This document shows, piece by piece, positions 27,004-57,167 of a stretch of DNA of 64,000 bases. The position numbers and the translations under genes were made by a program. Position 1 is the first letter of the stretch. Each line of letters opens with the position of its first letter. The notes beneath the pieces are model-generated. The model ran no database searches. It was not told the origin of the DNA and saw only the letters and a list, made by a program, of their open reading frames with translations. Origin of the DNA: an uncultured Desulfospira sp. (GTDB taxonomy: Bacteria > Desulfobacterota > Desulfobacteria > Desulfobacterales > Desulfobacteraceae); contig OY760175.1 in the NCBI GenBank assembly GCA_963663165.1, positions 6,368,001-6,432,000 on the forward strand, given 5' to 3'.

Positions 27004-27005
27004 TT

Positions 27006-32518: not shown

Positions 32519-32573
32519 ATAGTCCGGGGTTTAAAACCAGCATTGGGGGTATGTTGCTTGTAACAAAGTCCTC
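32519..32573 (+). repeat. Bipartite motif copy 1 (candidate recombination/end site) upstream of the recombinase
   Basis: ATAGTCCGGGGT-N36-AGTCCTC; matches the reverse complements of 56174-56236 and 57105-57167. Confidence 0.65.
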
Positions 32574-32723
32574 AGTGAAATATTAAAGATGCTGGTGTTA
32601 TTCAAAACCGATATCTTTTCCCCTGATCATGGCCTGTCAGTTGAAAAATATTTTTCATGTTTTAAAAGATCTGACTGGGGGCTCTTTCAAAGTGAACCTC
32701 AATTTTTATCAAAGGAGAGCATC

Positions 32724-33714
32724 ATGAAAACATCAAATGCCATTGACACTTTTCTGAATTATCAAAAAATGAATTCAAAAAAAACACCATAAGAAATTAT
32801 GGCTTTTTTCTGACACGATTTAAAAAGGAATATGGCTTTTTTGAAATATCAAAAATCACATCTGAACAGGTTATGATTTTTTTGACCAAGGATGCTGATG
32901 GTCAAAAGCAATCAACGAAGAAACTCAAATTTTCAATGCTCAGGTCATTTTTCAATTTTGTCAAAGATTCATGTAACTATTCAGCTAATGCTGAAAACTA
33001 AGCAAAATCAGGGTCCGTAACTGTTCATCAGTGCTTCATATTTGTTTAGTCAGGACTTCGTAGCATACTTTTGCTATGTGAGAAGGCCTGAATGAGCGAA
33101 GATGGGGCACTGCTGAACAGTTACAGATTCATTTGATTCAACATTCTCAAATCCATGTGATACTCCAATATTGAGGAAAACATTTAAAACAGCCAAAGGG
33201 AGGTCGTGGACAATTCTAGGGATGTTGTGGACGAAATTATCTTTAAGACAAATAATTCCAGAAACCGATTGATGCTCGAGCTGATGGCAAGAGGTGGGAT
33301 GAGAGTTGGAGAGGTTTTGAAATTAAAAGCCAAGAATGTGCACGGCAGGAAGTTGCTTTAACTGATCCGAAAAGCGGAAATCAGACCGAGATTGTTTTTA
33401 TCTCTAAAAAAGTAGCGGATCGTTTACGGGAATATATCACCACCGGCAAGATAGGAGATGACCATAACGTGTTTCCATTTGGATACACCAGAGCACGTGA
33501 AATCGTTCAAAATGATGGAAAAATGATAAATGTGAATTTGAATCCCCACGATCTTAGACGACATGCTGCCACTTATGCAAGCAGATCAGGGGTGCCCATT
33601 GAAATCGTTTCGAAGATAATCCTCCGCCATGCGAATCTGTCAACGACCCAGCGGTATCTTGGAAAAGTCAGTGACACAGAGGCTATGAACTGGATCGATA
33701 ATCTTTACAGATAA
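32724..33714 (+). pseudogene. Tyrosine recombinase/integrase pseudogene
   Basis: AGGAG plus ATG 32724. The stitched translation contains GMRVGE (R), PKSG (K), HDLRRH (HxxR), LRHA (H) and TQRY (Y). It is broken by an A8 frame change at 32777-32784, an insertion at 32973-33124 and frameshifts near 33218 and 33358. Confidence 0.9.
32973..33124. mobile_element. 152-bp MITE inserted in the recombinase gene
   Basis: TIRs GTAACTATTCAGC / GCTGAACAGTTAC; 8-bp direct duplication AGATTCAT at 32965-32972 and 33125-33132; removing it restores FVKDSFDSTFSNPC. Confidence 0.92.
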
Positions 33715-33841
33715 AATTTTTGGGGGCTGGTAAACTCCGGTCCCCGATTAACTTCGGCCAGGTCTTTAAAAAGAGATCCAATGCTGGCTAACGTTGTGAG
33801 ACGCCGTGAGGGGAAACATTTTCTTTAAAATCTGAAAATCG

Positions 33842-34654
33842 TCATTGAGCCCAGCCTCTATTTGTCGGGTCGGGCATCCGTTGAACTTGGACATTTATAC
33901 TTAACAGGTCCACTGGATCTCCGAATTGTGTGTAGATGGCAACATCGGCCGCATCTCGGCCATAAGCGATTGCAATCCGTCCTCCTTTCAGATCGGGCCG
34001 CGTCGGATCAAATGTATACCACCGATTTCCAACATATGCCTCAAACCAGGCGTGCAAATCCATTGGCTCAAGTGCCTCAAGGTAACCGACTACCATACGG
34101 GCAGGTATCGATAACGCCCGGCTAAAAGCGATCCCCAAATGGGCCAGATCCCGACAGACGCCGTGGCCAAGCTGGGTTACCTCAGAGGCACTTAGGATCT
34201 GCTGCCCATCACCAGGGGTATATCCTATCGAACCCCTGATATAATCAACAATGGCCTGGCATTGATCGTATCCTAAGCGGCGGCCTTTCGTAATCGATGC
34301 CGCCATTCCCGTGAAGCGGTCCGATTCACAATAACGGCTGGGGTACAGAAAAGGCAGGGTGGCGTCCGGCAATTCCTGCACCTCGATGAACGGTGCGCCG
34401 GGAGCCCTGTCGGAATTTTCCGCAGTCTCGATATCAACAGAGGTACGAACTGAAAAATCACCGGCCGGTGCGACCAGTCTTTGACATAGATTGCCGAAGG
34501 AATCCGTAAACTCTGCCGCCGGCACGCTGGGTGATAAAAGATATTCTTCGCGTGTGATCCACTGCTGCCGCCCGCTACGGGGGCGAAGCATCAGCAAAAA
34601 CGGGGTTGGAGCCGATATCTGAAATTCAATTAGACAGGATGCATTTAACCGCAT
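33842..34654 (-). CDS. Transglutaminase-like family protein
   Basis: [13 protein letters not shown] and FDPT supply the Cys-His-Asp triad; YGRDAADVA. Confidence 0.9.
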
Positions 34655-34663
34655 GATACTCCT

Positions 34664-35803
34664 TTAAATAGACAAACGATCTTTTCTCCATTTTAGAGTG
34701 GACCTCAATCCTTCCTTGGCGACCATTGCTCCTTCGATTTCGTCGAAAAGCGCAAAATTCACGGCATTTATGAGATCAATATTTCTATTCGCACTGTCCT
34801 TAAATGGATCTTGGTTTAGAACTTCCTGGTAAACAGATCGGAATTCATTCAGTCTGCGCTTTTTGAATATTTTCTGAAAAAAGCTTTTAGAGCGCTGGGA
34901 AAAACCTAATTTTTTGAGCCGTCTCATGATGTACGCAAGGGTTCTCGTTGTTGTTTTAAACCCGAATGTTTCTTCCAATACCGATTTAAGGGCCGGGGGC
35001 ACCTGCAATGGGTCGGCAAGGCCATTAATCGTTTCTTTTTCCTCCGATTCTGGTGGAATCGAAATTTTTATATTTCCTTTGGACTTTAGAGGCCTTTTCA
35101 AGCTATAGGCCTCGACGTCCCGGCACAATTGCTCAGCCTGCATGGCGGCGGCCTGCAGATAAGCGCTCAGATTATAGAAACCTGAGTGTATATGTCCTGG
35201 AAGCGTGTCTCCGATCCGACTGTAGCTGTATCTGTATTTATGGTCAATTTCCCCCCATGCCTCCTCAAGAATGGTCCTCAATTGCAGTTCAATCTGAATG
35301 TGTTTAAATGCTTGGCCTGCATCTGAATTCTCACCCAGTTTGACCTGGTAGTGAATTGAAGAGTATCCGCTATACTGGAGGCTGACATCCTTTGGGACGG
35401 CCTTGCCAGGATCTATCGGTAAAACAAATGTTCTTTTATAATCGGGTTGTTGTATGAAAGTTAATATTTTTTCTTCCACTAAATATTCAAGATACGCCTC
35501 GACGTTCACAATGTCTGAAAGGCGGAGACAAACAATCCGGATACCAATAATATCGCCAATCCTTTCCTTGAAATTTTTATGTGTGATCGGCGCCATATTG
35601 GATTCCGGACTGATATTTTCCTGGTCGATTTTTTCTATGAGCCTTGATGCGTCTTTGATCCTGTACAGAATGGTATGTATGCTCTCCTTTGGGGCGGAAG
35701 GATCGTCTTCTAGCAGCCGGACAACATACTCGGCAAGTTTTTTGTAATTCTCTTTTTCCTTGAAAAAAGAGATCAGTAAATCGTCTCTTTGTTTTTTTCT
35801 CAA
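34664..35803 (-). CDS. RelA/SpoT synthetase-domain protein (small alarmone synthetase-like) with C-terminal extension; TTG start
   Basis: RIKDASRLIEK, DIIGIRI, GYSSIHY and ELQLRT..EEAWGEIDHKYRY. Confidence 0.85.
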   Translation of the reverse strand: MRKKQRDDLLISFFKEKENYKKLAEYVVRLLEDDPSAPKESIHTILYRIKDASRLIEKIDQENISPESNMAPITHKNFKERIGDIIGIRIVCLRLSDIVNVEAYLEYLVEEKILTFIQQPDYKRTFVLPIDPGKAVPKDVSLQYSGYSSIHYQVKLGENSDAGQAFKHIQIELQLRTILEEAWGEIDHKYRYSYSRIGDTLPGHIHSGFYNLSAYLQAAAMQAEQLCRDVEAYSLKRPLKSKGNIKISIPPESEEKETINGLADPLQVPPALKSVLEETFGFKTTTRTLAYIMRRLKKLGFSQRSKSFFQKIFKKRRLNEFRSVYQEVLNQDPFKDSANRNIDLINAVNFALFDEIEGAMVAKEGLRSTLKWRKDRLSI

Positions 35804-35894
35804 TAGTTAAATCCTTTTTGGGGCTTATCATCATGGCCTTTTTGTCTGCTGTTTTTTTCAGCGGTCCCATACGCGTTAAAACTTCCGGCCGTTA

Positions 35895-35943
35895 ACCCTG
35901 CGCATGGCCCTATACCCTGCGCATGGCCCTATACACTGCGCAT
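35895..35943. repeat. 19-bp tandem duplication spanning the GH130 stop codon
   Basis: ACCCTGCGCATGGCCCTAT x2 plus a partial copy. Confidence 0.85.
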
Positions 35944-37404
35944 CGCATTGATCAGATGACTCACAGAAACCGTTGCGATGCCCGAATTAATATCGGACAT
36001 GGCATAGGGAATGACCAGCTCATTGCGATGGATGATTGAACCGCAGGAGTAGACGACGTTTGGAACATACCCCTCCCGCTCTTTTTCAGTGGGAGCCAAA
36101 AGCGGTTGTTCAAGCCGTGCGATGACCTTGCGCGGGTTTTCAAGATCAAGGAGCATGGCACCGATGCAGTATTGCCGCATGGGCCCGACGCCATGGGTCA
36201 GAACGAGCCAGCCTTTCTCAGTCTCCATGGGCGAACCGCAGTTGCCGATCTGGACAAATTCCCAGGGATACTCGGGCATCTGGATCATATGAGAGGTTCT
36301 CCAGAAGTGCAGGTGTTTTGAAAACATAATATGGTTGCTCTCACCATCCTGCCGGGACAGCATGGCAAACTGGCCCTTAATCTTCCGGGGGAACAGGGCC
36401 AGGCCTTTATCCTGTGCTGCTTTTCCGTTCAGCATTGTAATTTTAAAACTGATAAAATCCCTGGTTTCGATCAGCTGGGGTAAAATGGTCACCCCGTTAT
36501 ACGCCGTATAGGTTGCATAGTAGGTTGAGTCTCCATTATCATCAAAGAACTGAACAAACCGCGCATCTTCTATCCCGCGGCTCTCATTTCTGGAAACCGG
36601 AAAGATGACCCGCTCGGAGATGCGGTGATTCGAATGGAAATCCACCTCATAATTGGAGTCCGAAAGCCAGTTGATAATCTCAAAGGTCCTGTTCTGTCCG
36701 GTTTTTGAAAATTGAGGGTGTTTATGAAGCCTTCCCATTTCCCTGCCCAGTTCTTCCTTGCTGAATTCTTCGGGAAGCGCATTGAGGACATGGGTGCAGA
36801 TATCGGAATCTGCATTCATTTCCCTGAGCTTGTGCTCAAAGAGCTTTCGCTTGTATAAGGGGTTCAACTTCAGTTCCGGTGTCTCCACAAACTCACTGAC
36901 CGGGTCAAACCGGAAGGTGTTGTACCGGTTCAGCACACCGCTTCTGAAAACAATGGAAGAAATATGGCCTTCACCGGTGGCCCGCAAACTCATGACAAAC
37001 CGGAGGCTGCCTTCTTCAAGATTGTCCTGAATTGGATGCGGCACAATGGATGGATTGAAAAGCGCTGCGGATTCAATGGCATACTCCTTTGTAAAATACG
37101 CGCCGATCAATGTTCTTTCCGTGTCACTGAGCAAGGTCTCTTTTTTAATTTGGTGTTTTACCAGGTTGAAGTGCCGTTCAAAAATATGGACCAGGTCGTC
37201 GTGGCGCCTGGAAAACTCTTTCATGATCTGTGTTAATAATCTGTTGCCCTCCTTCTGGGTCAGGCCGCGGATTCGCTGGATGATCGAGGCGATGCGCCTG
37301 GCATCAGCCGGGAGATGGGGTCTTGTAATGACACGGGAGGTATCCCCGACGATTTTATTGGGTTTTCTTGTGATCGTCAGGTTGCCATGGCTTTTTTTCG
37401 GCAT
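35929..37404 (-). CDS. Glycoside hydrolase family 130 protein (long form)
   Basis: ESAALFNP, GIEDARFV, YTAYNG, IGNCGSP and GYVPNVVYSCG. Confidence 0.9.
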   Translation of the reverse strand: MPKKSHGNLTITRKPNKIVGDTSRVITRPHLPADARRIASIIQRIRGLTQKEGNRLLTQIMKEFSRRHDDLVHIFERHFNLVKHQIKKETLLSDTERTLIGAYFTKEYAIESAALFNPSIVPHPIQDNLEEGSLRFVMSLRATGEGHISSIVFRSGVLNRYNTFRFDPVSEFVETPELKLNPLYKRKLFEHKLREMNADSDICTHVLNALPEEFSKEELGREMGRLHKHPQFSKTGQNRTFEIINWLSDSNYEVDFHSNHRISERVIFPVSRNESRGIEDARFVQFFDDNGDSTYYATYTAYNGVTILPQLIETRDFISFKITMLNGKAAQDKGLALFPRKIKGQFAMLSRQDGESNHIMFSKHLHFWRTSHMIQMPEYPWEFVQIGNCGSPMETEKGWLVLTHGVGPMRQYCIGAMLLDLENPRKVIARLEQPLLAPTEKEREGYVPNVVYSCGSIIHRNELVIPYAMSDINSGIATVSVSHLINAMRSV

Positions 37405-37431
37405 CAATGTCTTTCCTAATTCAGTTCAGGG

Positions 37432-38373
37432 TTACATGGGCGGACGATTCGACAGACGGCACAGGGAGACAAGATCACAAATCTTTGCCGTACCCGCGCA
37501 CATCACCGTATCTGCTCCCCCCCAGTAAATTTTCAGCATTCCGTCATCTTCAGGTACAGCACCGCAGCTAAACACCACATTGGGGACATAGCCGGTCTGT
37601 TCCCAGACCTCTTCGGGCTGCAGGATCCATTGATCAGACACCCCGGTCACCCTGGAAGGGTCTGATAAATCATGCAGCGCCGCCCCAAGCCGGTATACGG
37701 TTCCGGACATGGTTTTAAAAACACCGTGGTAGATATGAAGCCAGCCCTCATCCGTCTTAATGGGCGGTGCGCCAGGGCCGATTTTCATTTCATCCCAGTG
37801 GTAGGGTAAGGGCTTGATGACAACCTGTGAGTCCCCCCAGTAAATCAGGTCCGGGGAATAGGAAATCCAGATGGACCAGGGAGAAATTTCCGAGTGGGGA
37901 CGGTCCAGACGGACATACCGGCCATCAATTTTTTCAGGAAAGATCACCACATTGCGCAGATCGGCCTGGGTGATCAGGGCAATCCGTTCGATTTTTTCAA
38001 AATCACAGGTCCGGGCCAGGGCAATGCGAACCCCGTGGCGGGAATAGGCACTGTAGGTGAGAAGGTATGAGCCCTCAACCGGGTTGATGCGCAAATCCTC
38101 GACCCCGAAGGCTTCGTATTCGGCAAAACGTCCACTGGATGCCGGCGTTAAAAAGGGTTCCGGGCTGACTGTGAAAGTAAAGCCATCCGGGCTGTCCGCC
38201 CTTCCGATGACAGACCGTCCGTTTTTCAAATGGGACCGGAACAGCATGATATAGCGGTCTTTGTATCTGACCACCCCGGCATTGTGCACCGTTACAACGG
38301 GATAGGGCACATCCTCCCGGGTCAGTATCGGGTTTTTGGGGTAACGCGTCACAATATCCTGGATTTTATCCAT
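37432..38373 (-). CDS. Glycoside hydrolase family 130 protein (mannoside phosphorylase-like)
   Basis: NPILT, VHNAG, GVEDLRI, KIGPGAPP and GYVPNVVFSCG; ATG 38373 preferred over 38433. Confidence 0.9.
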   Translation of the reverse strand: MDKIQDIVTRYPKNPILTREDVPYPVVTVHNAGVVRYKDRYIMLFRSHLKNGRSVIGRADSPDGFTFTVSPEPFLTPASSGRFAEYEAFGVEDLRINPVEGSYLLTYSAYSRHGVRIALARTCDFEKIERIALITQADLRNVVIFPEKIDGRYVRLDRPHSEISPWSIWISYSPDLIYWGDSQVVIKPLPYHWDEMKIGPGAPPIKTDEGWLHIYHGVFKTMSGTVYRLGAALHDLSDPSRVTGVSDQWILQPEEVWEQTGYVPNVVFSCGAVPEDDGMLKIYWGGADTVMCAGTAKICDLVSLCRLSNRPPM

Positions 38374-38383
38374 TTGAGTCCTT

Positions 38384-39736
38384 TCAGATCCTTCCGAAAT
38401 CATCGGCCAGACGTTCAATATCATCTTCGCCAAAATAGTCGCCGGTCTGAATTTCCATAAAAACCAGATTGTCCCGGCCGCTGTTTTCCATTCTGTGGAT
38501 GGCTTTTCTGGGGATATCCACAGATTGCCCGGCAGTCACCGGGACGGTTTTGCCGTCAAGGGTCCAAAGCCCTTTACCGCTGACGATATACCAGTGCTCA
38601 TCGCGGTACTGGTGGCGCTGAAGGCTTAAGCGTTTTCCCGGATAAACCACGATCTTTTTGTTCTTCACGGCATCCTCATCGGACAGTATGGTATAAAAGC
38701 CCCAGGGGCGGCGGTCTTCACGCCGGGTGCTCTCCAGGATCCGCTCATACACCCGGATATATTTTTTAACCATGCAGTCGATGGTAAAGTGGTCCATCAC
38801 TGTTCTGCGGCAGAATTCACGGTCAATATCCCTGATGCGGTCCACCGCAGAGACAGCCTCATCTGTTCCGGAAACAAGAAATCCGTTTTTATTGTCCCGG
38901 ATCAGTTCGGGCATACTGCCCCGGTTGTTTGCAATGACCGGCGTGCCGCAGGCCATGGCTTCGATAACCGAAAGACCGAATGGTTCGTTAAAATTGATGG
39001 GGTGAAGCAGGGCATGGGCCTTGCCCAAAAGGTCATTTCTCTTATCGGGTCCAACACTGCCAAGATAAACCACAGAGGCATCGTCAATGAAGGGCTGGAT
39101 ATCTTCCCTAAAATAGGTGCTGTCCTGAATAATGCCTGCCATGATCAGCCTTCTGCCGCATGCCCGGGCGATGTCAATGGCCTCTTTGGCGCCTTTATCC
39201 GGATGGATGCGGCCGAAAAAGACCAGATACCCTTCCGGGTGGGCCTGAAAATGAAACTCCTTTATATCGATGCCGTGGTGAATGGTGTCAATATAGTCAA
39301 GGCCCTTAGCCCGGTCAGCATCGCTGATGGAAACGTAAAAGGTTTTTTTATTGTATTTGCGGTACACCGGTAAAATTCCAGGCGATGAAAAACCGTGGAT
39401 GGTGGTCACCATAGGGGTCTGGGTAAGGCCTGCATAGGTTAAGGGGAGAAAATCAAAGTTATTGTGAATGATATCAAACTCTTGGGCATGGTCAAACAAT
39501 TCAGAAATGTGAAGGCATTCGCCTACTTTGGGAATGATGTCTGAATCCTCTTCATATCCCTGGGAACAGACCGCATGAAGGGTGCTGCGCGTAATGGAAT
39601 CTGCCGTGGCAAACAGCGTGACGTCATGGCCGAGCCCCACCAGGGCCTCGGTTAAGAGGGAGGCCACTTTTTCCCAGGGGCCGTAGTGCCGAGGCGGGGT
39701 GCGCCAGGCAATGGGGGAGAGCATGGCAATGCGCAT
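38384..39736 (-). CDS. GT4 glycosyltransferase fused to a type II mannose-6-phosphate isomerase-like cupin
   Basis: PPRHYGPWE and EPFGLSVIEAMACGTP; C-terminal RPWG, LSLQRH and EIQTGDYFGEDDIERLAD. Confidence 0.9.
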   Translation of the reverse strand: MRIAMLSPIAWRTPPRHYGPWEKVASLLTEALVGLGHDVTLFATADSITRSTLHAVCSQGYEEDSDIIPKVGECLHISELFDHAQEFDIIHNNFDFLPLTYAGLTQTPMVTTIHGFSSPGILPVYRKYNKKTFYVSISDADRAKGLDYIDTIHHGIDIKEFHFQAHPEGYLVFFGRIHPDKGAKEAIDIARACGRRLIMAGIIQDSTYFREDIQPFIDDASVVYLGSVGPDKRNDLLGKAHALLHPINFNEPFGLSVIEAMACGTPVIANNRGSMPELIRDNKNGFLVSGTDEAVSAVDRIRDIDREFCRRTVMDHFTIDCMVKKYIRVYERILESTRREDRRPWGFYTILSDEDAVKNKKIVVYPGKRLSLQRHQYRDEHWYIVSGKGLWTLDGKTVPVTAGQSVDIPRKAIHRMENSGRDNLVFMEIQTGDYFGEDDIERLADDFGRI

Positions 39737-39760
39737 AAAATTTCCTTTATAGTGAGCCCC

Positions 39761-39838
39761 TTGACCAACTTTTATTGACCAACTTTTATTGATCAGGTTC
39801 TATTGACCAAGTTCTATTGATCAAGTTCTATTGATCAG
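39761..39838. repeat. 14-bp tandem repeat, about 5.5 copies (TTGAYCARSTTYTA)
   Basis: Direct reading; intergenic, overlapping the stop codon of the upstream GT4 gene. Confidence 0.9.
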
Positions 39839-42129
39839 GGAGAAGACTGATTCAACAGTTCATCCGCATAGAGTTTCTGCAGCGTCATCAGGGACAAAAG
39901 CCAGGCAAGGGTTGATTCCGCTCCCTGGTTCTGGTTGATACCGTCCACCATCAGGCCGTCCCGGCATCCTCCGGTCTTGGGGTCATACAAGGGCATGTTC
40001 AGATCATTGTGCCCCAGAAACCAGTTAAAACAGATGACCGCACGGTCAAACCATTGCCGGTCCCGGGTAATGCGGAAGGCTGCCGCACATGCCTCAACCA
40101 TGGTTTTGGCTTCGATGGGCTGCTGGTCAAACCTGGCCCGCTTCCCTTTTTTGCCATACCAGCCGTTGCAGCCCACCGGGGCAAAATGATGATCCGACGT
40201 CTGGATGGAGAGCAGCCATAAAAGACTGTCCAGGCCCATCGTCACCATTTCCTTATCTTTCATTCGGTGACCTGAAACCAGAAGGGCATGGGAGAGTCTG
40301 GCATTGCCATAGTTCAAGGTATCCTCGACCCAGGGCCAGTCCCCGGTCTTGTTTTCACAAAACTGACTGAATATTCTTTGGGCCAGAACATCCCTGATTC
40401 TTCTGGCATCACTGTCACCGAAGAATTTGTCCAGGTAGGCATCCAGACCCACCAGGCAGAATGCAACAGCCCTTGGGGACCTGAAACTTTCGGCCGCAAT
40501 CAATGCCTTTTTAAACAGAACCGTGCTCATGGCCAGATGGCCTGGATTTTCCAGAAAAGCCACGGCCTTACCCAGACACCAGAGGGCCCGGCCATGGGAA
40601 TCCTCGGATCCGATCTCCTCAACCCATTGCCTTTCATAGGTCATGAAGTTGCGGAACCGTCCGTTTTTTTTATTGTAGGCGTATAAGAGGAATCCTAAGT
40701 AATGGCCGCTCAAGGCATCCAGGCCAAGGCCGTTGGCCGGCAGATGTTTCTGGCCCATGGCTGCGGCCAGCAGCGCTCTGGCATTGTCATCCGTGCAGTA
40801 TCCATGACGTCTGTCCGGAATGGTATAATTGGCATGCTGGAGCATGCCGGTGTCATCGGTCATGGCTTTCATGTGGTCCAGCTTGATCTCGGGCAGGTCA
40901 AAGCGGGTAATGGCTTTGATGTGTGACACATAGGAATGCCTGGGTCTGGGATGCCGGATCCGGTTGTGCCGCACCTCGCTGAAGAGGTCGAGATAATTTT
41001 GACAGACTTTTGACCATACCGCATCCCTTGTGAATGTGTATGCTTTTTTCCGGATGGCATGCCGCTGGTTATCATCGCCTAAAAGCGCGTTAATCTGTTC
41101 TGCCAGGGCATTGGGGCTGTTGAAGGGGACAAGGTGCCCCCGGCCCTCTGCCAGCATTTCCTGCGCATACCAGTACGGGGTTGAAATCACGGCTTTGCCG
41201 GTTCCCATGGCATAGGCAAGGGTTCCGGAGGTGATCTGGGCCTCTTCAAGATAGGGGGTGATGTAAATATCTGCAATGCCCAAAAATTCACACAGCTCTC
41301 TCAAGGCGACAAAATTATTCTGAAAGATGACATGGTCGCTGATATTCAGCGTGTGAACCATCTGCTGGAGCATGATCCGATAGGCATCCCCGTTATTTTT
41401 CAGGACATGGGGGTGGGTGGTGCCCAGGATGATATACACCACTTCCGGATATTTTTCGATGACAGCCGGAAGTGCCTGGAGCACGGTTTCGATTCCCTTG
41501 TTGGGCGAGAGCAGGCCAAAGGTGAGCAACACCTTTTTGCCTTCCACGTCAAATTTGTCTTTGTGAAAACTGGAATCGATAAAGGGCATGTCCGGAATAC
41601 CGTGGTGGATAAAGGCGATTTTTTCCCGGGGAATCCCATAGATCTCGTGGAGAAAACGTTCCGCCTTTCGGCTCATGACCACCAGTTTATCTGACAACTC
41701 TCCCAGCTTGACCATCACGCTGCGGTATTCGGGGGAGGGATCTTTCAACACGGTATGCAGTGTTGTCACCACCGGCATATGCAGATCTGAAAGAAGCTTG
41801 AGAACATGGCTGCCGGCAGGGCCCCCGAAGATACCGAATTCATGCTGAAGGCAGACAATATCGGTGTGGCTGATATTCAAGAACTGGGCGGCAATGCCAT
41901 AATCGGCCAATTTGTTCTGATTGATTTCAAAGCGTACTTTTTCAGGATATGCATACCCCTCTATACAGTCGTTCATGGCAACCGCCCAGCAATGGGTATT
42001 CTTTGCCCTGTCGGACAGGCCCTCAACCAGATCCCGTGTAAAGGTTGCAATGCCGCATTGCCTGGGCAGATAGTTACCGATGACGGCAACAGAATCGATC
42101 CCCTCAAAGGATTGTCCATTCGCTATCAT
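39835..42129 (-). CDS. GT4 glycosyltransferase with a large C-terminal domain
   Basis: PRQCGIATFT, QHEFGIFGG and SGTLAYAMG; C-terminal GYCTDDNARAL, FDQQPIEA and NQGAESTL. Confidence 0.9.
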   Translation of the reverse strand: MIANGQSFEGIDSVAVIGNYLPRQCGIATFTRDLVEGLSDRAKNTHCWAVAMNDCIEGYAYPEKVRFEINQNKLADYGIAAQFLNISHTDIVCLQHEFGIFGGPAGSHVLKLLSDLHMPVVTTLHTVLKDPSPEYRSVMVKLGELSDKLVVMSRKAERFLHEIYGIPREKIAFIHHGIPDMPFIDSSFHKDKFDVEGKKVLLTFGLLSPNKGIETVLQALPAVIEKYPEVVYIILGTTHPHVLKNNGDAYRIMLQQMVHTLNISDHVIFQNNFVALRELCEFLGIADIYITPYLEEAQITSGTLAYAMGTGKAVISTPYWYAQEMLAEGRGHLVPFNSPNALAEQINALLGDDNQRHAIRKKAYTFTRDAVWSKVCQNYLDLFSEVRHNRIRHPRPRHSYVSHIKAITRFDLPEIKLDHMKAMTDDTGMLQHANYTIPDRRHGYCTDDNARALLAAAMGQKHLPANGLGLDALSGHYLGFLLYAYNKKNGRFRNFMTYERQWVEEIGSEDSHGRALWCLGKAVAFLENPGHLAMSTVLFKKALIAAESFRSPRAVAFCLVGLDAYLDKFFGDSDARRIRDVLAQRIFSQFCENKTGDWPWVEDTLNYGNARLSHALLVSGHRMKDKEMVTMGLDSLLWLLSIQTSDHHFAPVGCNGWYGKKGKRARFDQQPIEAKTMVEACAAAFRITRDRQWFDRAVICFNWFLGHNDLNMPLYDPKTGGCRDGLMVDGINQNQGAESTLAWLLSLMTLQKLYADELLNQSSP

Positions 42130-45564: not shown

Positions 45565-45626
45565 TTTAAATTTCCTTAAATTTGTCCATAAATATGGATG
45601 TGTTGAAAAGACCTGAACCGTTGACA

Positions 45627-45818: not shown

Positions 45819-45853
45819 GGCTGCTTCTCCTGTTTTTTTGGGGGTTGGCCGCA

Positions 45854-46259: not shown

Positions 46260-46280
46260 TTTTTTTACCCTTGGAATCCA

Positions 46281-46733
46281 TTATTGATTGTCATTCATGA
46301 TATCCCGGCCAAATTCCCTGACCGCATGGATCCATCCCTGTTTGAAAAACCGATATTCTTCAACATCCCAATCAGGGACGCAGGTTTTATTTACTGCTGA
46401 CCAGAGTTCTTCAAATCTGTATCTGAAATCATTCTTGAAATAGTCATACTGGTAGTCGTCCTGCCGGTTCAGGGTTTCTTCGGCATCGTCAAAATCCGAT
46501 GCATTGATTGCCACCCTGCAGGCGTCATCATTTGACATATTTTTAATCCAGTTTTCCCCTTCTTCTTTGCCGAATTCGATCCAGTCGTCTTTGCTGTCAT
46601 TGGTCAAGCTGTCATTGGTCAAGCTGTCATTGGTCAGCCGGTGTATTTTTTCTTGGGTTTTTTCATCATGCCCTCCCATGGTTTTTCTGGTCGCTGGTTT
46701 TTCTGGCCGCGTCACACTATTGCTGCCGCGCAC
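46281..46733 (-). CDS. Hypothetical acidic protein with a 3x LTNDS repeat; start uncertain
   Basis: ORF co-oriented in the cluster; 15-bp tandem repeat at 46593-46636. Confidence 0.55.
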   Translation of the reverse strand: MRGSNSVTRPEKPATRKTMGGHDEKTQEKIHRLTNDSLTNDSLTNDSKDDWIEFGKEEGENWIKNMSNDDACRVAINASDFDDAEETLNRQDDYQYDYFKNDFRYRFEELWSAVNKTCVPDWDVEEYRFFKQGWIHAVREFGRDIMNDNQ

Positions 46734-46761
46734 CCTTGCCGCCGCTCAACAATGGGTGCGC

Positions 46762-48618: not shown

Positions 48619-48632
48619 GGACAGAATCCTTT

Positions 48633-49661: not shown

Positions 49662-49706
49662 GCGCTTGCCCCTTTCTTGGGCTTGGGGTGTTTTCAGGCC
49701 TTGAGA

Positions 49707-50744
49707 TTAATCCGGGCTCTGGCGCGGGGAAAGCGATTTCACCCCCAGGGTCTCGATGAGCCGGTTGATATCCGTTGTTTTAAGGTTCATTCCCCCCTCA
49801 GACACCGGAAGCAGAATAATGCGCTTGCCTTCAAGGGCCTGTGCAATTTCCAGTTTCACGATGGTTTCACCGCCGGAACCGGCCAGGGCATTGTTCATCT
49901 CCCGGATGCCCTTGGCTTCGGCAATACCTTCCGCCTCAATGGCCCTGGCCAGAAGCTGCTGCTGCTCCAGGTAGACATCTGCCTCGATTTTATCCTTTTG
50001 ATACTGGCCGTCGGCATTGGCCACCATCTTGTTGACTTCCCCCCGGGCCTCTTCAAGTTTTCGTTTGTACTCTTCAAGGGCGGCGTGCTGGGCGGATTTG
50101 TTCTTTTCCACCTGCTGGTCCGCCACTTTTTTATCTTCAATGGCCTTGGTGTACTCGGCATTGAATCGGTAGTCGTTGGTCAGCACCTTTTCGATGACAA
50201 TGCCCATGGGGCCAAGGATTTTATCCAAGGCGGCCTTGGCCTTTGCAGACTGGGTCTCTCTTGACTCGGCCACATAAAAGGCTTCGGTTTTCAGCTCTCC
50301 GAAGATATCCCTGGGCTTGCTTCTGGCCACGGTCCTGACAATGGTTTCCCTCAGGATGGCATCGTTCGGGGCTACATACTGGAGAATGTAAGGGGCTTTT
50401 GAGGCGTCAATCCTGTAGGCAATGATCACATCCAGGCTGATGTCGTTGCCGTCAGTGGTTTTAAACAGCAGGTCATCCTGGGATCTGCGGTCTCCCCGGG
50501 CTTTTGAAAAGGTCATTTCCAGATTCTGCAGCTTGGTATCAAAGACATGCCAGTCATTGATAAAGGGCATGAAAAAATAGGTTGAGCCCTGGGCATAGAC
50601 ATGGTCTTCCACCCCTTTGGGATCAAAGAGGCCGATTTTCCGGGTCCGGACACCGACTTGGGTTTCCCCTGTGGTATGGGGCATACAACCTGTGGACCAA
50701 ACCACTGCTGTCATCAGGATTACAACTAGGATAAACCGTTTCAT
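49707..50744 (-). CDS. SPFH/prohibitin-domain protein, possible lipoprotein
   Basis: N-terminal hydrophobic segment with STGC; KTTDGNDISLDVIIAYRID; coiled-coil AIEDKKVADQ. Confidence 0.85.
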   Translation of the reverse strand: MKRFILVVILMTAVVWSTGCMPHTTGETQVGVRTRKIGLFDPKGVEDHVYAQGSTYFFMPFINDWHVFDTKLQNLEMTFSKARGDRRSQDDLLFKTTDGNDISLDVIIAYRIDASKAPYILQYVAPNDAILRETIVRTVARSKPRDIFGELKTEAFYVAESRETQSAKAKAALDKILGPMGIVIEKVLTNDYRFNAEYTKAIEDKKVADQQVEKNKSAQHAALEEYKRKLEEARGEVNKMVANADGQYQKDKIEADVYLEQQQLLARAIEAEGIAEAKGIREMNNALAGSGGETIVKLEIAQALEGKRIILLPVSEGGMNLKTTDINRLIETLGVKSLSPRQSPD

Positions 50745-51853
50745 TTGGCACCTCCCTGGCGGACATCAAACAAGTTCAAAGTATTGTTCAGATCCAGCGG
50801 GTTGACCCCATGGGCACCGTCGCTGGGCAGGATAATCAGGTCAAGGCCCTCATAGGCCCGGGCCATCTTCAGCCCCACCATACGGTCGGACCCGACGCCC
50901 CTTAATGCCTCATTTTTCAGGCGCACCCGCTCGGCTTCAGACAGTTTCACCAGAAGATCGGCCTGGGCTTTTATTTTACGGACATAGAGGTCTTTTTCTG
51001 CGATTTTACGGGTCACATAGGCTTTGCCTTTTTCCATCTCAACCGCAGCGATGACCATGCCCTCCTGGACAATCTTCTTCAACTGGGCCTCTTCCCTGGC
51101 TGCCCGGGCCGCGGCCTGGTTGGTAAAAACCATCTGATCCTGAAGTTTTTTGGCTTCAATGTTTTTCTGGATTTCAGGACTGTATCGAAAATACCGGACC
51201 AGCACCTGATCCACCTCAATGCCCTTGGCGTTGAGTTCCCGGTTGAGATTGGCTTTGGCCTCCTCCGCCTTTTTGACCCGCATGGGGCTGTTGTAAAACT
51301 CTTCGGTGGTCAGTTTGCCCAGGGTCTCTTTCAGGGCCGGCTCGGCCTTGGGGATAATGCCGTTATCTTCGTACAGCTTGCCCGGACCGATGGTGGTAAA
51401 TACCAGGTAGGGGTCCTTGATGTGGTAGAGCATGGACACATCCACATCCACAAAAAAACCATCCGAGGTCTGGATATGGGCGGCCCGGTCTTTTCTGGCA
51501 CCGTTGGCCGCTGTTTCCGGAAAATTGGTCAGCTCCAGCACCTGGATGCCCTTGGGAAGGCGGTACATCTTCTGCAGACCAAAGGGCAGAACAAAGGTGA
51601 GCCCGGCATGGTACACCTGCCTTTGAACGCCGCGGGTCATCCCCACCCGGATCACCTTGATGCCGTATTCATTCGGTTCCACATAAACGAATAAATAGGC
51701 ATAACTAAAGTATAAAATCGCGGCCAGTATCAGCAGGGCTTGAAATCCTCTACCCAGCCTCATGTCCAGTCTCATATCCGGGGAAGAGCCGGATAATCGT
51801 TTCTTGATCCGGTTTAGATAGTCGTTAAATTGATTTGTCGGATGATCGGTCAC
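50741..51853 (-). CDS. SPFH/band 7-domain membrane protein
   Basis: TM segment, VEPNEYG, QTSDGFFVDVDVSMLY and a coiled-coil tail. Confidence 0.85.
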   Translation of the reverse strand: MTDHPTNQFNDYLNRIKKRLSGSSPDMRLDMRLGRGFQALLILAAILYFSYAYLFVYVEPNEYGIKVIRVGMTRGVQRQVYHAGLTFVLPFGLQKMYRLPKGIQVLELTNFPETAANGARKDRAAHIQTSDGFFVDVDVSMLYHIKDPYLVFTTIGPGKLYEDNGIIPKAEPALKETLGKLTTEEFYNSPMRVKKAEEAKANLNRELNAKGIEVDQVLVRYFRYSPEIQKNIEAKKLQDQMVFTNQAAARAAREEAQLKKIVQEGMVIAAVEMEKGKAYVTRKIAEKDLYVRKIKAQADLLVKLSEAERVRLKNEALRGVGSDRMVGLKMARAYEGLDLIILPSDGAHGVNPLDLNNTLNLFDVRQGGAK

Positions 51854-51899
51854 AGGTCAGCTCCTTTACGAGATGCCATCCATATGGAGAGCATGCATG

Positions 51900-53378
51900 T
51901 TAATAGATATAGCGTTCACAAATTTTCCGGTAATGATACCCGTATATGGACAAGGTCACGGCCACAGAGATCAGCCTGGGTCTTCGAACAAGGGTCCAGA
52001 GGATCAGATGCCAATAGCAGAACCGCTCTTTTCCCAGGATACCCAGCCTGAAACTCGCCCTGAAAAAAGAGAGAAACCGCTGCAAGTCCAGGGGTGCAAA
52101 CACCTCAGGGGGCGTGAGGGCCCGCAACTGGGTCCTGACCCGCCGGTAATAATTTGCCGGGGAATATATCTGCTCCATGATCCGTTGATACCCCTTTGAC
52201 AGTGCCTCCATCCCCATCCGGGGCAGAATATTGGTGGTGCCGTCCACATTATCGCCGGTAAAGGGCCTGACCACCCGACTGAGGCGCTGAAGCCTGTCAA
52301 ACAGGCGGGTTCCGGGCGGTGCCTGAAGCATCCCCACCATGGCCATGACGATCCCGCTGTGCTGTATAAAATCGATCTGGCGCTGGAAAATCGAGGGAGG
52401 GTCACTGTCAAATCCCACGATAAACCCGCCCATCACCTGCAGGCCGCTTTTGTGGATGATGGCCACACTTTCAAGCAGATCCCTGTTTTTATTCTGGACT
52501 TTATGACATTCGCTCAAGGCGGTTTCATCCGGAGACTCGATACCGATGAACACGGAGTCAAATCCGGCTTTAACCATCAAAGAGAGCAGTTCCGGATCAT
52601 CGGCAAGGTTGATGGAGGATTCTGTAAAAAAGACGCATCCTTTTTTATCCCGGCGCCATTGGATCAGGGCAGGAAGCAGACGGTTCTTCAGGAACCGGGT
52701 GTTGCCGATAAAATTATCATCCACAAAAAAGACACTGCTGCGCCAGCCAAGATCATAGATACGGTCCAGTTCCCCAATGATCTGTTCGGGTGTTTTCAGC
52801 CGGGGCCGGTGTCCGAACAGAGCGGTGACATTGCAAAAATCGCAGTTAAAGGGACAGCCCCTGGAGAACTGGATGCTCAAGGCGGCATATTGTTTTACCT
52901 TCAGCAGATGCCACAGGGGAACCGGTGTCTCACCAAGGTCACTGAACCCTTTTGCCCGATAGATCTTTTTTGCCTGCCCCTTCTTTAGATCGGATAAAAA
53001 CAGGGGCAGTGTCAGTTCTGCTTCATCCAGCACCAGGTGATCGACGGCCCCGAATTGCTCCGGTTCGGCCGTAAAAAGAGGCCCCCCGCAGACAAGAGTC
53101 ACCGGCAAGGCGTTGCACCGGTCAATAATCCGGCAGGCAGATTCGCGCTGAACCGTCATGCCGCCCATAAAGACCATGTCTGCCCATGAAAGGTCGTTGT
53201 CGCTCAAGCGCTCCACATTGGTATCCACAAGTCTTTTAGACCATTGTTGAGGCAGCAGCGCAGCCACTGTCAAAAGGCCCAAAGGGGGGAACGCGGCTTT
53301 TTTACCGATGAAACCCACCGCATGATTAAACGACCAGAAGGTGTCCGGAAATTTAGGATAAATCAGAAGTATATTCAT
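51900..53378 (-). CDS. B12-binding radical SAM protein (DUF4070/HpnP-like)
   Basis: YPKFPDTFWSF, PPLGLLTVAA, RGCPFNCDFC and GFIVGFD. Confidence 0.9.
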   Translation of the reverse strand: MNILLIYPKFPDTFWSFNHAVGFIGKKAAFPPLGLLTVAALLPQQWSKRLVDTNVERLSDNDLSWADMVFMGGMTVQRESACRIIDRCNALPVTLVCGGPLFTAEPEQFGAVDHLVLDEAELTLPLFLSDLKKGQAKKIYRAKGFSDLGETPVPLWHLLKVKQYAALSIQFSRGCPFNCDFCNVTALFGHRPRLKTPEQIIGELDRIYDLGWRSSVFFVDDNFIGNTRFLKNRLLPALIQWRRDKKGCVFFTESSINLADDPELLSLMVKAGFDSVFIGIESPDETALSECHKVQNKNRDLLESVAIIHKSGLQVMGGFIVGFDSDPPSIFQRQIDFIQHSGIVMAMVGMLQAPPGTRLFDRLQRLSRVVRPFTGDNVDGTTNILPRMGMEALSKGYQRIMEQIYSPANYYRRVRTQLRALTPPEVFAPLDLQRFLSFFRASFRLGILGKERFCYWHLILWTLVRRPRLISVAVTLSIYGYHYRKICERYIY

Positions 53379-53398
53379 TTGGGTATTCCTTTATGCCA

Positions 53399-53728
53399 TC
53401 AGCCTTTTTTCAGCCGGAGCGCCCGGACGGCATCCATCCCCCCGGTTCGGGACACGGTATGAATTCGAATCCGGGGCGGTTCGGATAAGAGAGTTTTTGT
53501 ACCCAGAAGCACATCGAACGGCTGGGATCGGATGTGATTGTTCATCTCGTTACGGGTTTCCCATTCTTCAAGCAGTATGAACCGGTTCTCCTCCTCAATG
53601 TCACAAAAGGCGGCGCAGCTTCTGCAGCCGGGTTCCTTTCTCAACGGTTCCATCAGGGAGAGAAGGGTTTGCAGCACTTCCAGATGTTTTTCCGGATGTA
53701 CGTTGAAGGTCATTGTGACAATCATCAT
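53399..53728 (-). CDS. Antibiotic-biosynthesis-monooxygenase (ABM) domain protein
   Basis: RKEPGC, LLEEWET and HIRS; GAGG RBS. Confidence 0.82.
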   Translation of the reverse strand: MMIVTMTFNVHPEKHLEVLQTLLSLMEPLRKEPGCRSCAAFCDIEEENRFILLEEWETRNEMNNHIRSQPFDVLLGTKTLLSEPPRIRIHTVSRTGGMDAVRALRLKKG

Positions 53729-53814
53729 TTGGATCACCTCTTAAACTCATGCCGGCAAATTAACCGGGAACCGTTAACCCTTCTGGGCCGAGCGCCAAAA
53801 CGCTTGCCAGAAGG

Positions 53815-53913
53815 TTACTTTAGTTTTTTTTGTCTGCGTTTCTCCTTTGGTGTCAACTTGGCTTTTTTCTGCTCTTCACGCCTGCCTTTGTCTCGTTTTC
53901 CCTTGTCGCCCAT
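53815..53913 (-). CDS. 32-aa highly basic small protein (not in the ORF track)
   Basis: MGDKGKRDKGRREEQKKAKLTPKEKRRQKKLK*; GAGG RBS; first ORF after the sigma-54 promoter. Confidence 0.7.
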   Translation of the reverse strand: MGDKGKRDKGRREEQKKAKLTPKEKRRQKKLK

Positions 53914-54012
53914 AAATGCCTCTTGAGATTAAAATTTCTGGTTTATTTTTCCATTGCCCGTTTTTCCGCTTTTTCTGCTTTTCCGCGGGCGGGGGTGTTG
54001 TAACCTGATAGG

Positions 54013-54027
54013 GCAATCATTGTGCCA
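54013..54027 (-). promoter_or_regulatory. Sigma-54 (-24/-12) promoter
   Basis: Minus strand TGGCAC-AATGA-TTGC with canonical GG-N10-GC spacing. Confidence 0.85.
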
Positions 54028-54126
54028 GGGGACGGGTCGGGGAATTTATTCTTTGATGATGCTGAATTTTAAGGGGAAACACCCAAAGGAGGGGGGGGGG
54101 TAAGGACGCCGGAGGGCCTCAAAAGC

Positions 54127-54158
54127 GGTCGTATTTGTCCAATGGGTCATATGGGACC
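54127..54158. promoter_or_regulatory. Candidate sigma-54 activator binding site (14-4-14), copy 2
   Basis: GGTCGTATTTGTCC-AATG-GGTCATATGGGACC, 100 bp from the -24 box. Confidence 0.65.
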
Positions 54159-54228
54159 TTTTTAATGTCCCCTTTTGAGGATCAGGTGCATGGCTGCAAA
54201 AGGATCGGCCACAACAAAAATACGCCCA

Positions 54229-55728
54229 TTAAGAATCAAAGGGAAGGCGTTCAGGGGGAACGATGGAAAGTTTACGCATGCGGGCACGCAATGTACTGCG
54301 GTTTAAACCCAGAATCTGGGCCGCACTGTTCTTACCGCTGACTTTCCAGCGGGTCTGTTCGAGCACGCGGATGATATAATCGCGTTCAACCGCCTCCAGG
54401 GTTTTAAAGTCTTTGGTCAAATGCCTGTAGGATTTTTCCAGATCATCCGCCAGATGGAGTTTGGCGCTTGATGAATTGATCACTGCCCGTTCAAGAACAT
54501 TTTCCAGCTCCCGGACGTTTCCCGGCCAGTGATAGTTTGAAAGGGCATTCATCACGGCTTGAGGAACCACCTTGATCTGCTTTCCCAGTCTCCGGGAGAT
54601 TTTCTTTATATAAAAATCAGCCAGAAGGGGGATATCCTCATTTCTTTCCCGCAGCGGCGGCATGGTAATGGGAAAGACATTGAGCCGGTACCACAGATCT
54701 TCCCTGAAACGCCCTTTTTCAATTTCCTGCTCAAGATTCCGGTTTGTCGCGGCAATGATCCGGACATCCACCTTGGTGGTACGAGAACTGCCCAGCCGCT
54801 CGAATTCACCGTCCTGAATGACCCTGAGCAACTTTGATTGCAATTCCAGAGGCATCTCTCCGATTTCGTCCAGAAACAGGGTGGCTTTGTCAGCAATCTC
54901 AAATCGTCCTTTGTGGCTGCGGTCGGCACCGGTAAACGCGCCTCTTTCATGACCGAAAAGCTCGCTCTCTATAAGATTTGAGGGCAATGCCGCACAATTG
55001 ACTTTGACCAGTGCCCGGTTTTTCCGGCTGCTGTTGCTGTGAATTGCCCGGGCCACAAGCTCTTTACCTGTGCCAGTCTCACCGAGAACCATAACCGTTG
55101 TGTTGCTGTCTGCAATCTGCTCAACTTTGAAGAGCACATATTTAAGCCCGTCACTTTTGCCGATAATGTTCTCGTGATTATGTTCCAGCTTGATCTCGTC
55201 TTTAAGATACGCCCGTTCATCTTCAAGTTGCTTTTTCAGTACTTCAATTTCTTTTAAAGATTTCTCGGCAATTTGTTTTTCCTGTTCGGTTTTCTTTTTT
55301 TCAAGAACAAGCTGTCGGGTCCTTTTTTTTACAATATCCTCAAGATTGCGCTTGTAATGCTCTTTTTCGGTCACATCCTCAATGGCCAGCAGAATCAACT
55401 CCAGTTTTTTAAAATCGTTATAGATTCTTCTGGCATTCAGATGCATGATTTTAGGCCCGATGCCATCAAAGGAATGCTCCACTTCAAAATCATTGAACAC
55501 GGTGTTTTCAGGGAGGATCTTCTCAAGCAATTCTCTGAGTCTTGGGATATTCCACTGCCCGTTGCCAAGATCATAAATTAAAACGCCCTCTGTCTCTTCC
55601 TGTTTGGTACAAAAGGCCATGTAGAACGCATGATTTGCTTTGACAATTTTTAAATCGGCATCAAGAACCACGAGCGGCTCACGCACTGAACTGAGAATAT
55701 CAGTGAAAATGTCTAAAAAATTTTGCAT
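54229..55728 (-). CDS. PAS-domain sigma-54-dependent transcriptional activator
   Basis: N-terminal PAS domain and coiled coil, [22 protein letters not shown] and a Fis-type HTH. Confidence 0.95.
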
Positions 55729-55856
55729 ATATGAATCCTAACATGTTTAGACTGCAATACATCTAATAGGATATTATTTAAATATTGTCAAAGTCTGAGC
55801 CACTGTATTGGTTCTGATTGCTGTATGAAGTACCCAGGCGGCGAATAATGATTTAA

Positions 55857-56110
55857 GGGCACCTCGAATAATCCGGTGCTGAATTAAATTTTTGAAAAAT
55901 TATGGAATCCACGAATAAAATTCATTTCCATGCCATAAGTCTGGCTGCGAACATCTCCCACAAAAAGATAGTCAGAGGGATTGAACGACCTTGGCCGTCC
56001 ATTATCCCGTCAGACTCCATTACGGACCAATGTTTTATATCGAGTCATGTTGTAAGCCAGGCTTCGGAGGCCGATTTTCGCCTTAGCTCTCGCAAGGCCT
56101 ATTGTTCTTT
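55857..56110 (-). mobile_element. IS5-family remnant (transposase C-terminus plus right end)
   Basis: Minus strand 56108-56010 reads RTIGLARAKAKIGLRSLAYNMTRY...*; terminal TTATTCGAGGTGCCC followed by TTAA. Confidence 0.8.
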
Positions 56111-56173
56111 GTTATTGGTGCCCCGGATGACCTGGATCCAAAAATCTGGCAGGTCAATCTAAAAAGCTGAGGT

Positions 56174-56236
56174 GAGGACTACCCTTCAGTCAGACTCCTT
56201 TTTATTGTCCAGCGACAACCCCAGACTATCCCTGTA
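56174..56236 (-). repeat. Bipartite 63-bp motif, copy 2
   Basis: GAGGACTAC-N35-ACCCCAGACTATCCCTGTA. Confidence 0.75.
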
Positions 56237-56272
56237 AATCATGTTGTTTAGATTCTTGCTTGTTGACTTATT

Positions 56273-56764
56273 TTAATCTGCGGGGTGCCGACCGGGTCTT
56301 TCTGGATGTTGTTGAATTTTATGGGGAAGTGAACTCTTTTTTTGCCTTTTTCTAACAGTATTCACAACACTCGAACTTCTGATGAGTTGTTCTGCAGAAT
56401 CCACAAAAAAAGCAGACCTGGAAATCCCCCTGGCTTTTGCAGCCCTGTCAATCTTGATAAGTTTATACTCAGGCACCGTGATATTTATCCTCTGGGTCTT
56501 GGGGGCTATGAAGGCAAAATCAATATCAGAAAGATACAAGAAACTATCTCTGGTATACAGATCTGAAGCTAAAAGGTCATCCATTTTAGAGGGGCTCGGG
56601 GGTTCAGATATGTCTTCTCCGTTATAATATAATTCTACCGCTTCTTGTATGTTAAGGATGGCTTCCTCCTGGGTATCACCATATGCAAAACATCCCGGAA
56701 TATCAGGTATAGTCACCCCGTAACCGGTGTCATCATCCTTATGAATAATTACCGGATATTTCAT
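56273..56764 (-). CDS. hicB: HicB family antitoxin
   Basis: YGVTIPDIPGCFAYGDTQEEA; ribbon-helix-helix RINIT...SRSAFF. Confidence 0.93.
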   Translation of the reverse strand: MKYPVIIHKDDDTGYGVTIPDIPGCFAYGDTQEEAILNIQEAVELYYNGEDISEPPSPSKMDDLLASDLYTRDSFLYLSDIDFAFIAPKTQRINITVPEYKLIKIDRAAKARGISRSAFFVDSAEQLIRSSSVVNTVRKRQKKSSLPHKIQQHPERPGRHPAD

Positions 56765-56765
56765 C

Positions 56766-56954
56766 TCACTTTCTCCATTTTAATCCTGCCATTCTATAAA
56801 TATTTCTGGCTGTCCCAATAGGCAGGTCTTTTTGGGGATGAGGTACAATTACAATTTTACCATTTTCATGCTTGAATTTGTGATGATCACCAGACACTTT
56901 AACCAATACGAATCCAGCATTTTTAAGTTCTTTTATGATCTGCCTACTGTTCAT
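56766..56954 (-). CDS. hicA: HicA family toxin
   Basis: LKNAGF...SGDHHKFKH...VPHPQKDLPIGT. Confidence 0.93.
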   Translation of the reverse strand: MNSRQIIKELKNAGFVLVKVSGDHHKFKHENGKIVIVPHPQKDLPIGTARNIYRMAGLKWRK

Positions 56955-57104
56955 ATTTATAAATACACACTATACACACAAAAATCAACTGGTAGGTATT
57001 GATAAAAAAAGTGTTGGGGTTGTATGCTCATTTTAAACAGGCGTGGCTGGCATTTTTGTTACCTCTTTATTCAATTTTCCAGAATTGAATAACAATTGAA
57101 TAGC

Positions 57105-57167
57105 GAGGACTACTATCAAGCTGTGGATCGCTTTTCAGGCGAATGGTCACCCCGGACTATCCCTGTA
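57105..57167 (-). repeat. Bipartite 63-bp motif, copy 3
   Basis: GAGGACTAC-N35-ACCCCGGACTATCCCTGTA. Confidence 0.75.

Follow-up and report, generated by a model that had tools for sequence, protein, structure and literature searches.

What joins an accessory gene region to the core genes on either side of it, when the region begins with the remains of a tyrosine recombinase gene and has copies of one gapped repeat at its edges? This question is raised by a locus in an uncultured Desulfospira sp., within a 64,000-nt stretch of contig OY760175.1 (the window; positions are window positions unless prefixed by a genome label). The initial annotation took the repeats for recognition sites of the recombinase, delimiting a transposon-like or invertible unit of about 24 kb with two alternative right ends. 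The comparisons described here point to a different arrangement, in which the repeats would be the joints of a chromosomal gene-cassette system, and an Xer-like recombinase likely rejoins only those sites that have the same spacer. We give this reading a probability of about 70%.

Two site classes and their spacers

The pattern ATAGTCYGGGGT-N30-45-AGTCCTC matches the window exactly three times, at 32519-32573 (plus strand) and at 56174-56229 and 57105-57160 (minus strand), whereas 100 shuffles gave a mean of 0.00 and a maximum of 0 matches. With the TACAGGG that they have in common, both minus-strand sites are 63 bp long (56174-56236 and 57105-57167). Thus, the three sites first reported, including the 63-bp pair, are borne out, as is the remark that the window holds no other copy: no fourth site scores above the shuffle maximum of a spacer-blind matrix, and a degenerate site seen by eye near 32403 has no score in that matrix. 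Logos define each site as a dyad, in which 7 bp of spacer separate the inner arm TAGTCCGGGG from an outer arm that is inverted and weaker; both arms are of the TAGTCC type, and a second TAGTCC box lies 46-47 bp inward of the dyad. The two boxes originally proposed as the recognition site are real, but the core is the two-arm dyad, which reaches outside the motif first described. There are two classes of site, distinguished by a fixed spacer: B, on the left, has TTAATAA, and A, on the right, has ACAGGGA (TCCCTGT on the other strand). The features of the locus are as follows.

32443..32512, plus strand: outer piece of about 70 bp, 72-78% identical to four other B sites of the genome; probably a remnant linker module
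32503..32573, plus strand: B-type left site, defined from logos, with a degenerate outer arm
32513-32519, 32520-32529 and 32566-32573, plus strand: spacer TTAATAA, inner arm TAGTCCGGGG and second box AAGTCCTC of the B site
32511..56236, no strand: large cassette of 23.7 kb, with the B spacer at one end and the inner A spacer at the other
32724..33714, plus strand: pseudogene of an Xer-like tyrosine recombinase, with core-binding and catalytic domains and no arm-binding domain
32973..33124, no strand: miniature inverted-repeat transposable element (MITE) of 152 bp inside the recombinase gene; its ends are inverted repeats, 8 bp of target (AGATTCAT) are duplicated, and the genome has 50 near-full copies
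33842..55728, all minus strand: cargo genes, i.e., transglutaminase-like, RelA/SpoT-domain, two GH130, two glycosyltransferases, an extra GroEL, FtsH, GGDEF, two Band-7, radical SAM and a PAS-sigma54 activator
56174..56245, minus strand: inner A-type site, with a degenerate outer arm
56174-56181, 56219-56228 and 56229-56235: second box, inner arm and spacer (TCCCTGT on the plus strand) of the inner A site
56236..57166, minus strand: hicAB cassette of 931 bp with its own A arm and a direct repeat of the 7-bp spacer on both sides
56273-56764 and 56766-56954, minus strand: hicB and hicA, from Pfam
57105..57176, minus strand: outer A-type site
57105-57112, 57150-57159 and 57160-57166: second box, arm and spacer (TCCCTGT) of the outer A site
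57167-57204 (within 57167..57275), plus strand: 38-bp linker, which joins an A site to a B site in G071, a genome of another genus
From the linker up to 57275, plus strand: piece of about 70 bp, common to the outermost A site of several arrays
57289..57625, no strand: two unrelated dispersed repeats outside the site system, of 113 bp (7 identical copies) and about 224 bp (many partial copies)

The comparison set comprises 161 genomes of the family, which are kin to one another and many of which are drafts; G000 denotes the source genome, G001 a genome of the same genus, and L-numbers individual loci outside the window. Scanning these genomes for the motif, as first proposed, found strict sites in a patchy distribution, in 64 of 161 (strict A in 53 genomes with 145 matches, strict B in 44 with 67; the reversed control gave 0 matches). 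In G000, a matrix scan found 34 sites, 16 B and 18 A, with two borderline matches excluded and 1 match in the reversed genome; these fall into 9 inward-facing groups, mostly with several right-type sites, and 9 sites are unpaired.

The spacer is ACAGGGA in 59/70 A sites and TTAATAA in 43/47 B sites of the logo set, in which sites were selected partly by their spacer; the fair test is a spacer-blind scan of G000. That scan found 13 B arms with the B spacer, 12 A arms with the A spacer, 1 with another spacer and none swapped (control, 0 matches). At other loci, again partly selected by spacer, 37 and 60 of 99 arms are concordant, 1 has another spacer and 1 has ACAAAGA, a degenerate A spacer that was scored as B through a tie only. 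No A arm was thus seen with the B spacer and no B arm with the A spacer, an observation that speaks against inversion and against transposon-type joining of left to right ends. The sole candidate swap is at L012 (about 250-290, upstream of a recombinase), where an A-position arm, seen by eye and below the matrix threshold, has a B-type spacer. As to orientation, an A site lies within 40 kb of 20 B sites, and 18 of these 20 face it (44 of the 67 strict B matches entered this count, an A match being possible; the other 23 are on contigs without one). Neighbouring A sites are in direct orientation in 26/26 pairs.

The 24-kb block, the hicAB cassette and other cargo

A copy of 32511-56236 is present at G071:C1:5633378-5656371, with 91-98% identity per segment and 97% over the cargo, and the homology stops at both spacers. 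The core genes to the left of the site are only 67-81% identical in G071 and lie about 2.6 Mb away there. On these comparisons, the 24-kb block is a genuine cassette, recently transferred between genera; the discrete cargo unit bounded by sites that had first been proposed moved as a block, and its accessory minus-strand genes take up 22 kb between the left and the inner right site.

The right ends of the two copies differ. In G071, the cargo A arm is followed by TCCCTGT, the 38-bp linker, a B-type spacer and the next B arm, whereas in the window it is followed by TCCCTGT, 931 bp containing hicB-hicA and their own A arm, a second TCCCTGT and the same 38-bp linker. As their sequences align, the window and G071 are a filled and an empty form for hicAB, with the spacer duplicated. 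G074, and G071 at a second locus, each have a unit about 90% identical, with spacers as its bounds and unrelated genes beside it. Since the hicAB piece with its own A arm is missing from the G071 block, the outer "right end" is part of another cassette, and the claim of two alternative right ends is not supported.

Other modules lie between neighbouring A sites. In the 24 listed, genes are not co-oriented (23 in the same direction, 30 in the opposite one). When 19 of them were scanned (three hicAB copies and two long modules being left aside), 11 had named toxin-antitoxin families, 2 only DUF4160/DUF2442, 2 helix-turn-helix (HTH)-Fic pairs, 2 RhuM, 1 GFA and 1 nothing. The B...A blocks of G000, from 22 selected proteins, carry two type I restriction-modification systems, bacteriophage exclusion (BREX), IetAS, and Ppl-like and NsnA-like genes. 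BREX lies between a B and an A site at G000:C1:4276432-4301444, where 4.2 kb near the B end are 97% identical to a different G001 locus.

The cargo genes of the window are also present in G001, at 79-86% identity, and the 40 kb examined there have neither a site nor a recombinase, so the stress cluster also exists outside the site system. The cluster occurs in many genomes of the family, often without sites, which implies that it was captured, not built, by the cassette system. In G078, the block is present at 91-93% identity, closed by a different A arm. Its right part is found in G057 and G070, with a shorter version of the same A arm; in G057, the genome that was inspected, the outer flank is not the same. 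PADLOC gave one weak match among 11 cargo proteins of the window.

Among 130 sites compared pairwise, 16 pairs are listed in which the inner side is common and the outer flank differs, and 12 of these lose homology within 7 bp outside the arm; in 28 pairs, many of them non-independent, only the outer side is common. Two orthologous loci of G000 and G001 agree in the outer flank of the B site but have different inner arms and contents, of 3.4 and 12 kb at one locus and of 1.1 and 21.5 kb at the other. The complete alternating order of cargo, linker and next arm is seen once, in G071, and no further close A-B junction is convincing among 47 B and 75 A sites. Several B sites (L176, L166, G000:C1:5951269) have a common outer flank with repeated TGTGCCC words, which we take to resemble an island end.

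On the core side, SPOR lies to the left and formate dehydrogenase to the right. The two are adjacent in G001, with 85 bp between them, so that the relative first proposed for defining the breakpoints does exist, but it has no sites and no common intergenic sequence there. Measured against the core/accessory transitions that G001 defines, the left site lies about 410 bp and the right about 530 bp inside; the sites are near the transitions, as first described, but do not coincide with them. No Rfam match was found in the window. At 58400-58455, a TGA splits the formate dehydrogenase large subunit into two open reading frames, and we assume that it is probably the selenocysteine codon. After fdhE, at 62808-63315, there are a Phd/YefM antitoxin and a small RelE-like neighbour (no Pfam match at 1e-5), with no A or B site nearby. 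All 7 copies of the 113-bp repeat (here at 57289-57401) are 100% identical, indicating very recent spread.

The recombinase and a possible mechanism

The recombinase ATG (32724) lies 150 bp past the end of the left site, in agreement with the initial annotation. The window copy of the gene is broken by the MITE and by 4-bp and 1-bp deletions near 33217 and 33354, besides a slip in an A8 run (32777-32784); another copy of the MITE lies near 27000-27150. A copy that is otherwise intact is present at G000:C1:2317844-2318679, and G034:C448 has one that is in frame. Members of the family have about 280 residues, with R-K-H-R-H-Y invariant in 8/8 aligned proteins; weak matches to PF02899/PF13495 and a strong match to PF00589 give the core-binding and catalytic domains. 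The family is below every NCBIfam cut-off (the best is archaeal XerA, 110 vs 220 bits, and it is far below XerC and XerD too), and the nearest solved structure is that of XerA (4a8e). Homologs at E<=1e-30 amount to 136 representatives (50% clustering), many of them fragments. In 70 of 89 scored rows (duplicates kept), start codon and gene body are in different frames, with the change mostly at an A-run near codon 19; as this frameshift is common and occurs in both directions across the family, it suggests slippage rather than decay. The run varies from A8 to A10 across homologs and, by eye, is interrupted in most in-frame members.

The recombinase is found in 52 of the 161 genomes: 38 have both it and sites, 26 sites only, 14 the enzyme only and 83 neither, an odds ratio of 8.7 among kin that are not independent; within genera, the association is found in g11 (p=0.002). 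Of 15 close copies, 9 have a site 109-212 bp upstream of the ATG (7 A-type and 2 B-type, including the window), as against 0/10 copies at 60-72% identity. Co-occurrence and upstream sites thus support the proposed link between the sites and this recombinase family, although the expectation for the flanks of its homologs holds for close copies and not for distant ones. In a clade at 65-70% identity (L003, L039, L041, L004, L049), a B-like arm, perhaps with a third spacer, was seen by eye after the recombinase stop.

The same cassettes might instead be moved by another enzyme (the host XerC/D, a recombinase-in-trio (RIT) set or an integron integrase), with the small recombinase as a frequent passenger. 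We regard this as unlikely. A passenger gene could well be broken as often as this one is, vary in position (after the A site in most loci, after the B site in the window) and be missing from 26 genomes that have sites; however, the sites track the recombinase clade and stand just upstream of most of its close copies. Moreover, both arms are TAGTCC with a 7-bp spacer, as against the 6-bp spacer of the two-protein site of plasmid dif (pdif) modules in PMC13141974. Nor is there a hairpin for IntI to read.

Tyrosine recombinases usually require identical spacers in the two sites that they join. Spacer identity also governs which pdif sites react, according to PMC13141974. With spacers that are fixed and unequal, left-right joining would be blocked while A x A and B x B crossovers would be allowed, a rule which would explain the stacking of A-only cassettes, the replacement of B...A blocks at both ends and the lack of swaps. 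The recombinase would bind the TAGTCC arms, and the second box would be an accessory site marking the cassette side. An A-only cassette, such as hicAB, would be excised and reintegrated as a circle via an A x A crossover, so that A sites would accumulate in direct orientation. A B...A cassette would move either as a circle with the neighbouring linker (by A x A or B x B), or through one crossover in each class, the second following the first, and the latter route would be a natural cassette exchange. An A x B crossover would be absent because the spacers differ. The broken window recombinase may be complemented in trans by the otherwise intact G000 copy, whose expression would need a slip in the A-run.

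Several observations weigh against such a cassette system. Catalysis by the recombinase is putative; the association with sites is not significant in genus g3 (p=0.059), and the 26 genomes with strict sites and no recombinase match, like the 14 with the reverse, count here too. No strict A site lies within 40 kb on the same contig for 47/67 strict B sites. Beside 20 distant (45-63%) homologs, 4 loci have one short repeat match each, none informative. As for a vehicle, neither phage sets nor IMG/VR gave a recombinase, nor did 72,556 plasmid records (E<=1e-30); strict A sites are also missing from IMG/VR. A joint skipping hicAB is not among the joints listed for four runs (contigs), and no circle was seen; in run X1, 56237 and 57166 are the points at which two contigs begin or end, which is a weak hint. 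The whole window region has no clean empty site, G001 having 85 unrelated bp and no sites there, and the flanks of the G071 locus are not in common among 25 genomes of its genus. The A-side breakpoints at both G000/G001 orthologous loci are not at the spacer; compared with G001, a longer stretch that includes G000 3195038-3195997 has been replaced, and the flanks of the BREX unit are rearranged, with spacer-exact breakpoints in neither case. Finally, some common arms diverge just past the second box, which the cassette model does not explain. Such arm pairs (G000:C1:4002278 and 4003101; L144 and L145) are near-identical to about 5 bp past the box, where a second crossover point is possible.

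Known systems and other readings

A transposon-like or invertible unit, with its left end joined to its right end as in Tn916, unequal spacers tolerated and spare right ends, is improbable. Inward-facing left/right pairs are indeed the rule, and the 24-kb block moved as one unit; but joining of this kind predicts scrambled or swapped spacers, and there are none among the 26 G000 arms and none clear among the 99 elsewhere (L012 being the one by-eye candidate). The spacer on the left is unlike that on the right, and the two are never swapped; the breakpoints fall in pre-existing sites; what flanks them are other halves of sites of these two classes and not random targets; no target duplication beyond the 7-bp spacer was seen; and the outer right end travels with hicAB alone. 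The terms "invertible" and "transposon-like" are therefore not supported. In PMC7157771, TnpI/irs of Tn4430 and Tn5401 resembles this locus in having a site just upstream of a tyrosine recombinase gene, with an inverted core and direct-repeat subsites; it has one resolution site, in contrast to the many dispersed sites of two classes here, and unlike Tn3/TnpI, the 24-kb unit has no transposase family among the open reading frames scanned. A tRNA-type integrative island has direct att repeats, whereas here the end spacers differ, and the window has no tRNA or tmRNA.

It is more improbable again that the boxes, as repeats, serve regulation or protein binding, or are what is left of an old element, and that other mobile elements or homologous recombination built the modules. 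In favour of this, a large number of sites are degenerate or have no partner, and these regions are crowded with MITEs, insertion sequences and RIT elements; yet in several contexts, independent of one another, breakpoints fall on the 7-bp spacer and the sequence on one side of it is unrelated, and the filled/empty pair has an exact duplication of the spacer. RIT elements and the IntDes subgroup, the latter from sulfate reducers, are likewise tyrosine recombinases of mobile elements (PMC8138268). Here, there is one gene and not a trio, no arm-binding domain, and the first catalytic histidine is intact (HDLRR); identity with IntDes was rejected.

A divergent integron, recombining single-stranded attC-like hairpins, is scarcely credible: the small cassettes are mostly toxin-antitoxin pairs, stacked directly, but 8/8 strands tested have no significant fold (z -1.43 to +2.16), the IntI model TIGR02249 gives 51 bits vs a cut-off of 265, there is no insertion relative to archaeal XerA (4a8e), and cassette genes face either way. 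PMC4889954 allows likenesses to integrons and to attC clusters that have no integrase (CALINs), i.e., arrays of direct sites, with and without a recombinase gene, small cassettes rich in toxin-antitoxin pairs, and insertion at a site with duplication of its core. Unlike integrons in that source, the system has no IntI-specific domain of about 35 residues near patch III, no attC hairpin and no common gene orientation; its two site classes face each other, and its cassettes can be far above the integron size of about 2 kb.

The dif modules of Acinetobacter (pdif, XerC/D), as described in PMC13141974, are bounded by inversely oriented tyrosine recombinase sites and are of two alternating types; a like arrangement may hold here (cargo and linker, with the full order seen once, in G071), movement would likewise be by pair excision or two-step exchange, and toxin-antitoxin cargo is common in both. 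The published description also sets them apart: their 28-bp site has distinct XerC and XerD arms and a 6-bp spacer, whereas here the arms are symmetric, the spacer is 7 bp and there is an extra box 46-47 bp inside. Further, the present system would use one dedicated recombinase rather than host XerC/D, has only two fixed spacers family-wide, cassettes of up to 25 kb and A-only cassettes that stack singly, and is chromosomal, whereas those modules are on Rep_3 plasmids (same source). The cassette system would work like dif modules and integrons, yet fails the defining tests of both; with a dedicated small recombinase, it would amount to integron-like gene capture with other components.

In engineered recombinase-mediated cassette exchange with heterospecific lox or FRT sites, two incompatible spacers flank a cassette, which becomes replaceable but not invertible. 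The two mutually incompatible spacers here are alike; this system, however, is natural, and the coupling of both crossovers is putative.

Tentatively, at slightly less than even odds, we see here a third class of natural cassette platform after integrons and dif modules, in which one small recombinase with two orthogonal sites would bring about natural exchange of blocks of up to 25 kb (BREX, restriction-modification, stress clusters) between genera, toxin-antitoxin cassettes would stack at one end, and the A-run slip would throttle output. No published description of a two-class cassette system was found in the literature searched, which was largely without subscription papers and supplements. 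The two fixed spacers offer a sharp and cheap test of the mechanism, and an enzyme this compact (about 280 residues), which in nature would have two orthogonal sites and move large cargo, could be adopted as a tool for cassette exchange. If true, this would be a route of gene exchange that integron and transposon finders do not target, and it would explain how defence systems, toxin-antitoxin pairs and stress clusters are packaged and traded among sulfate-reducing bacteria.

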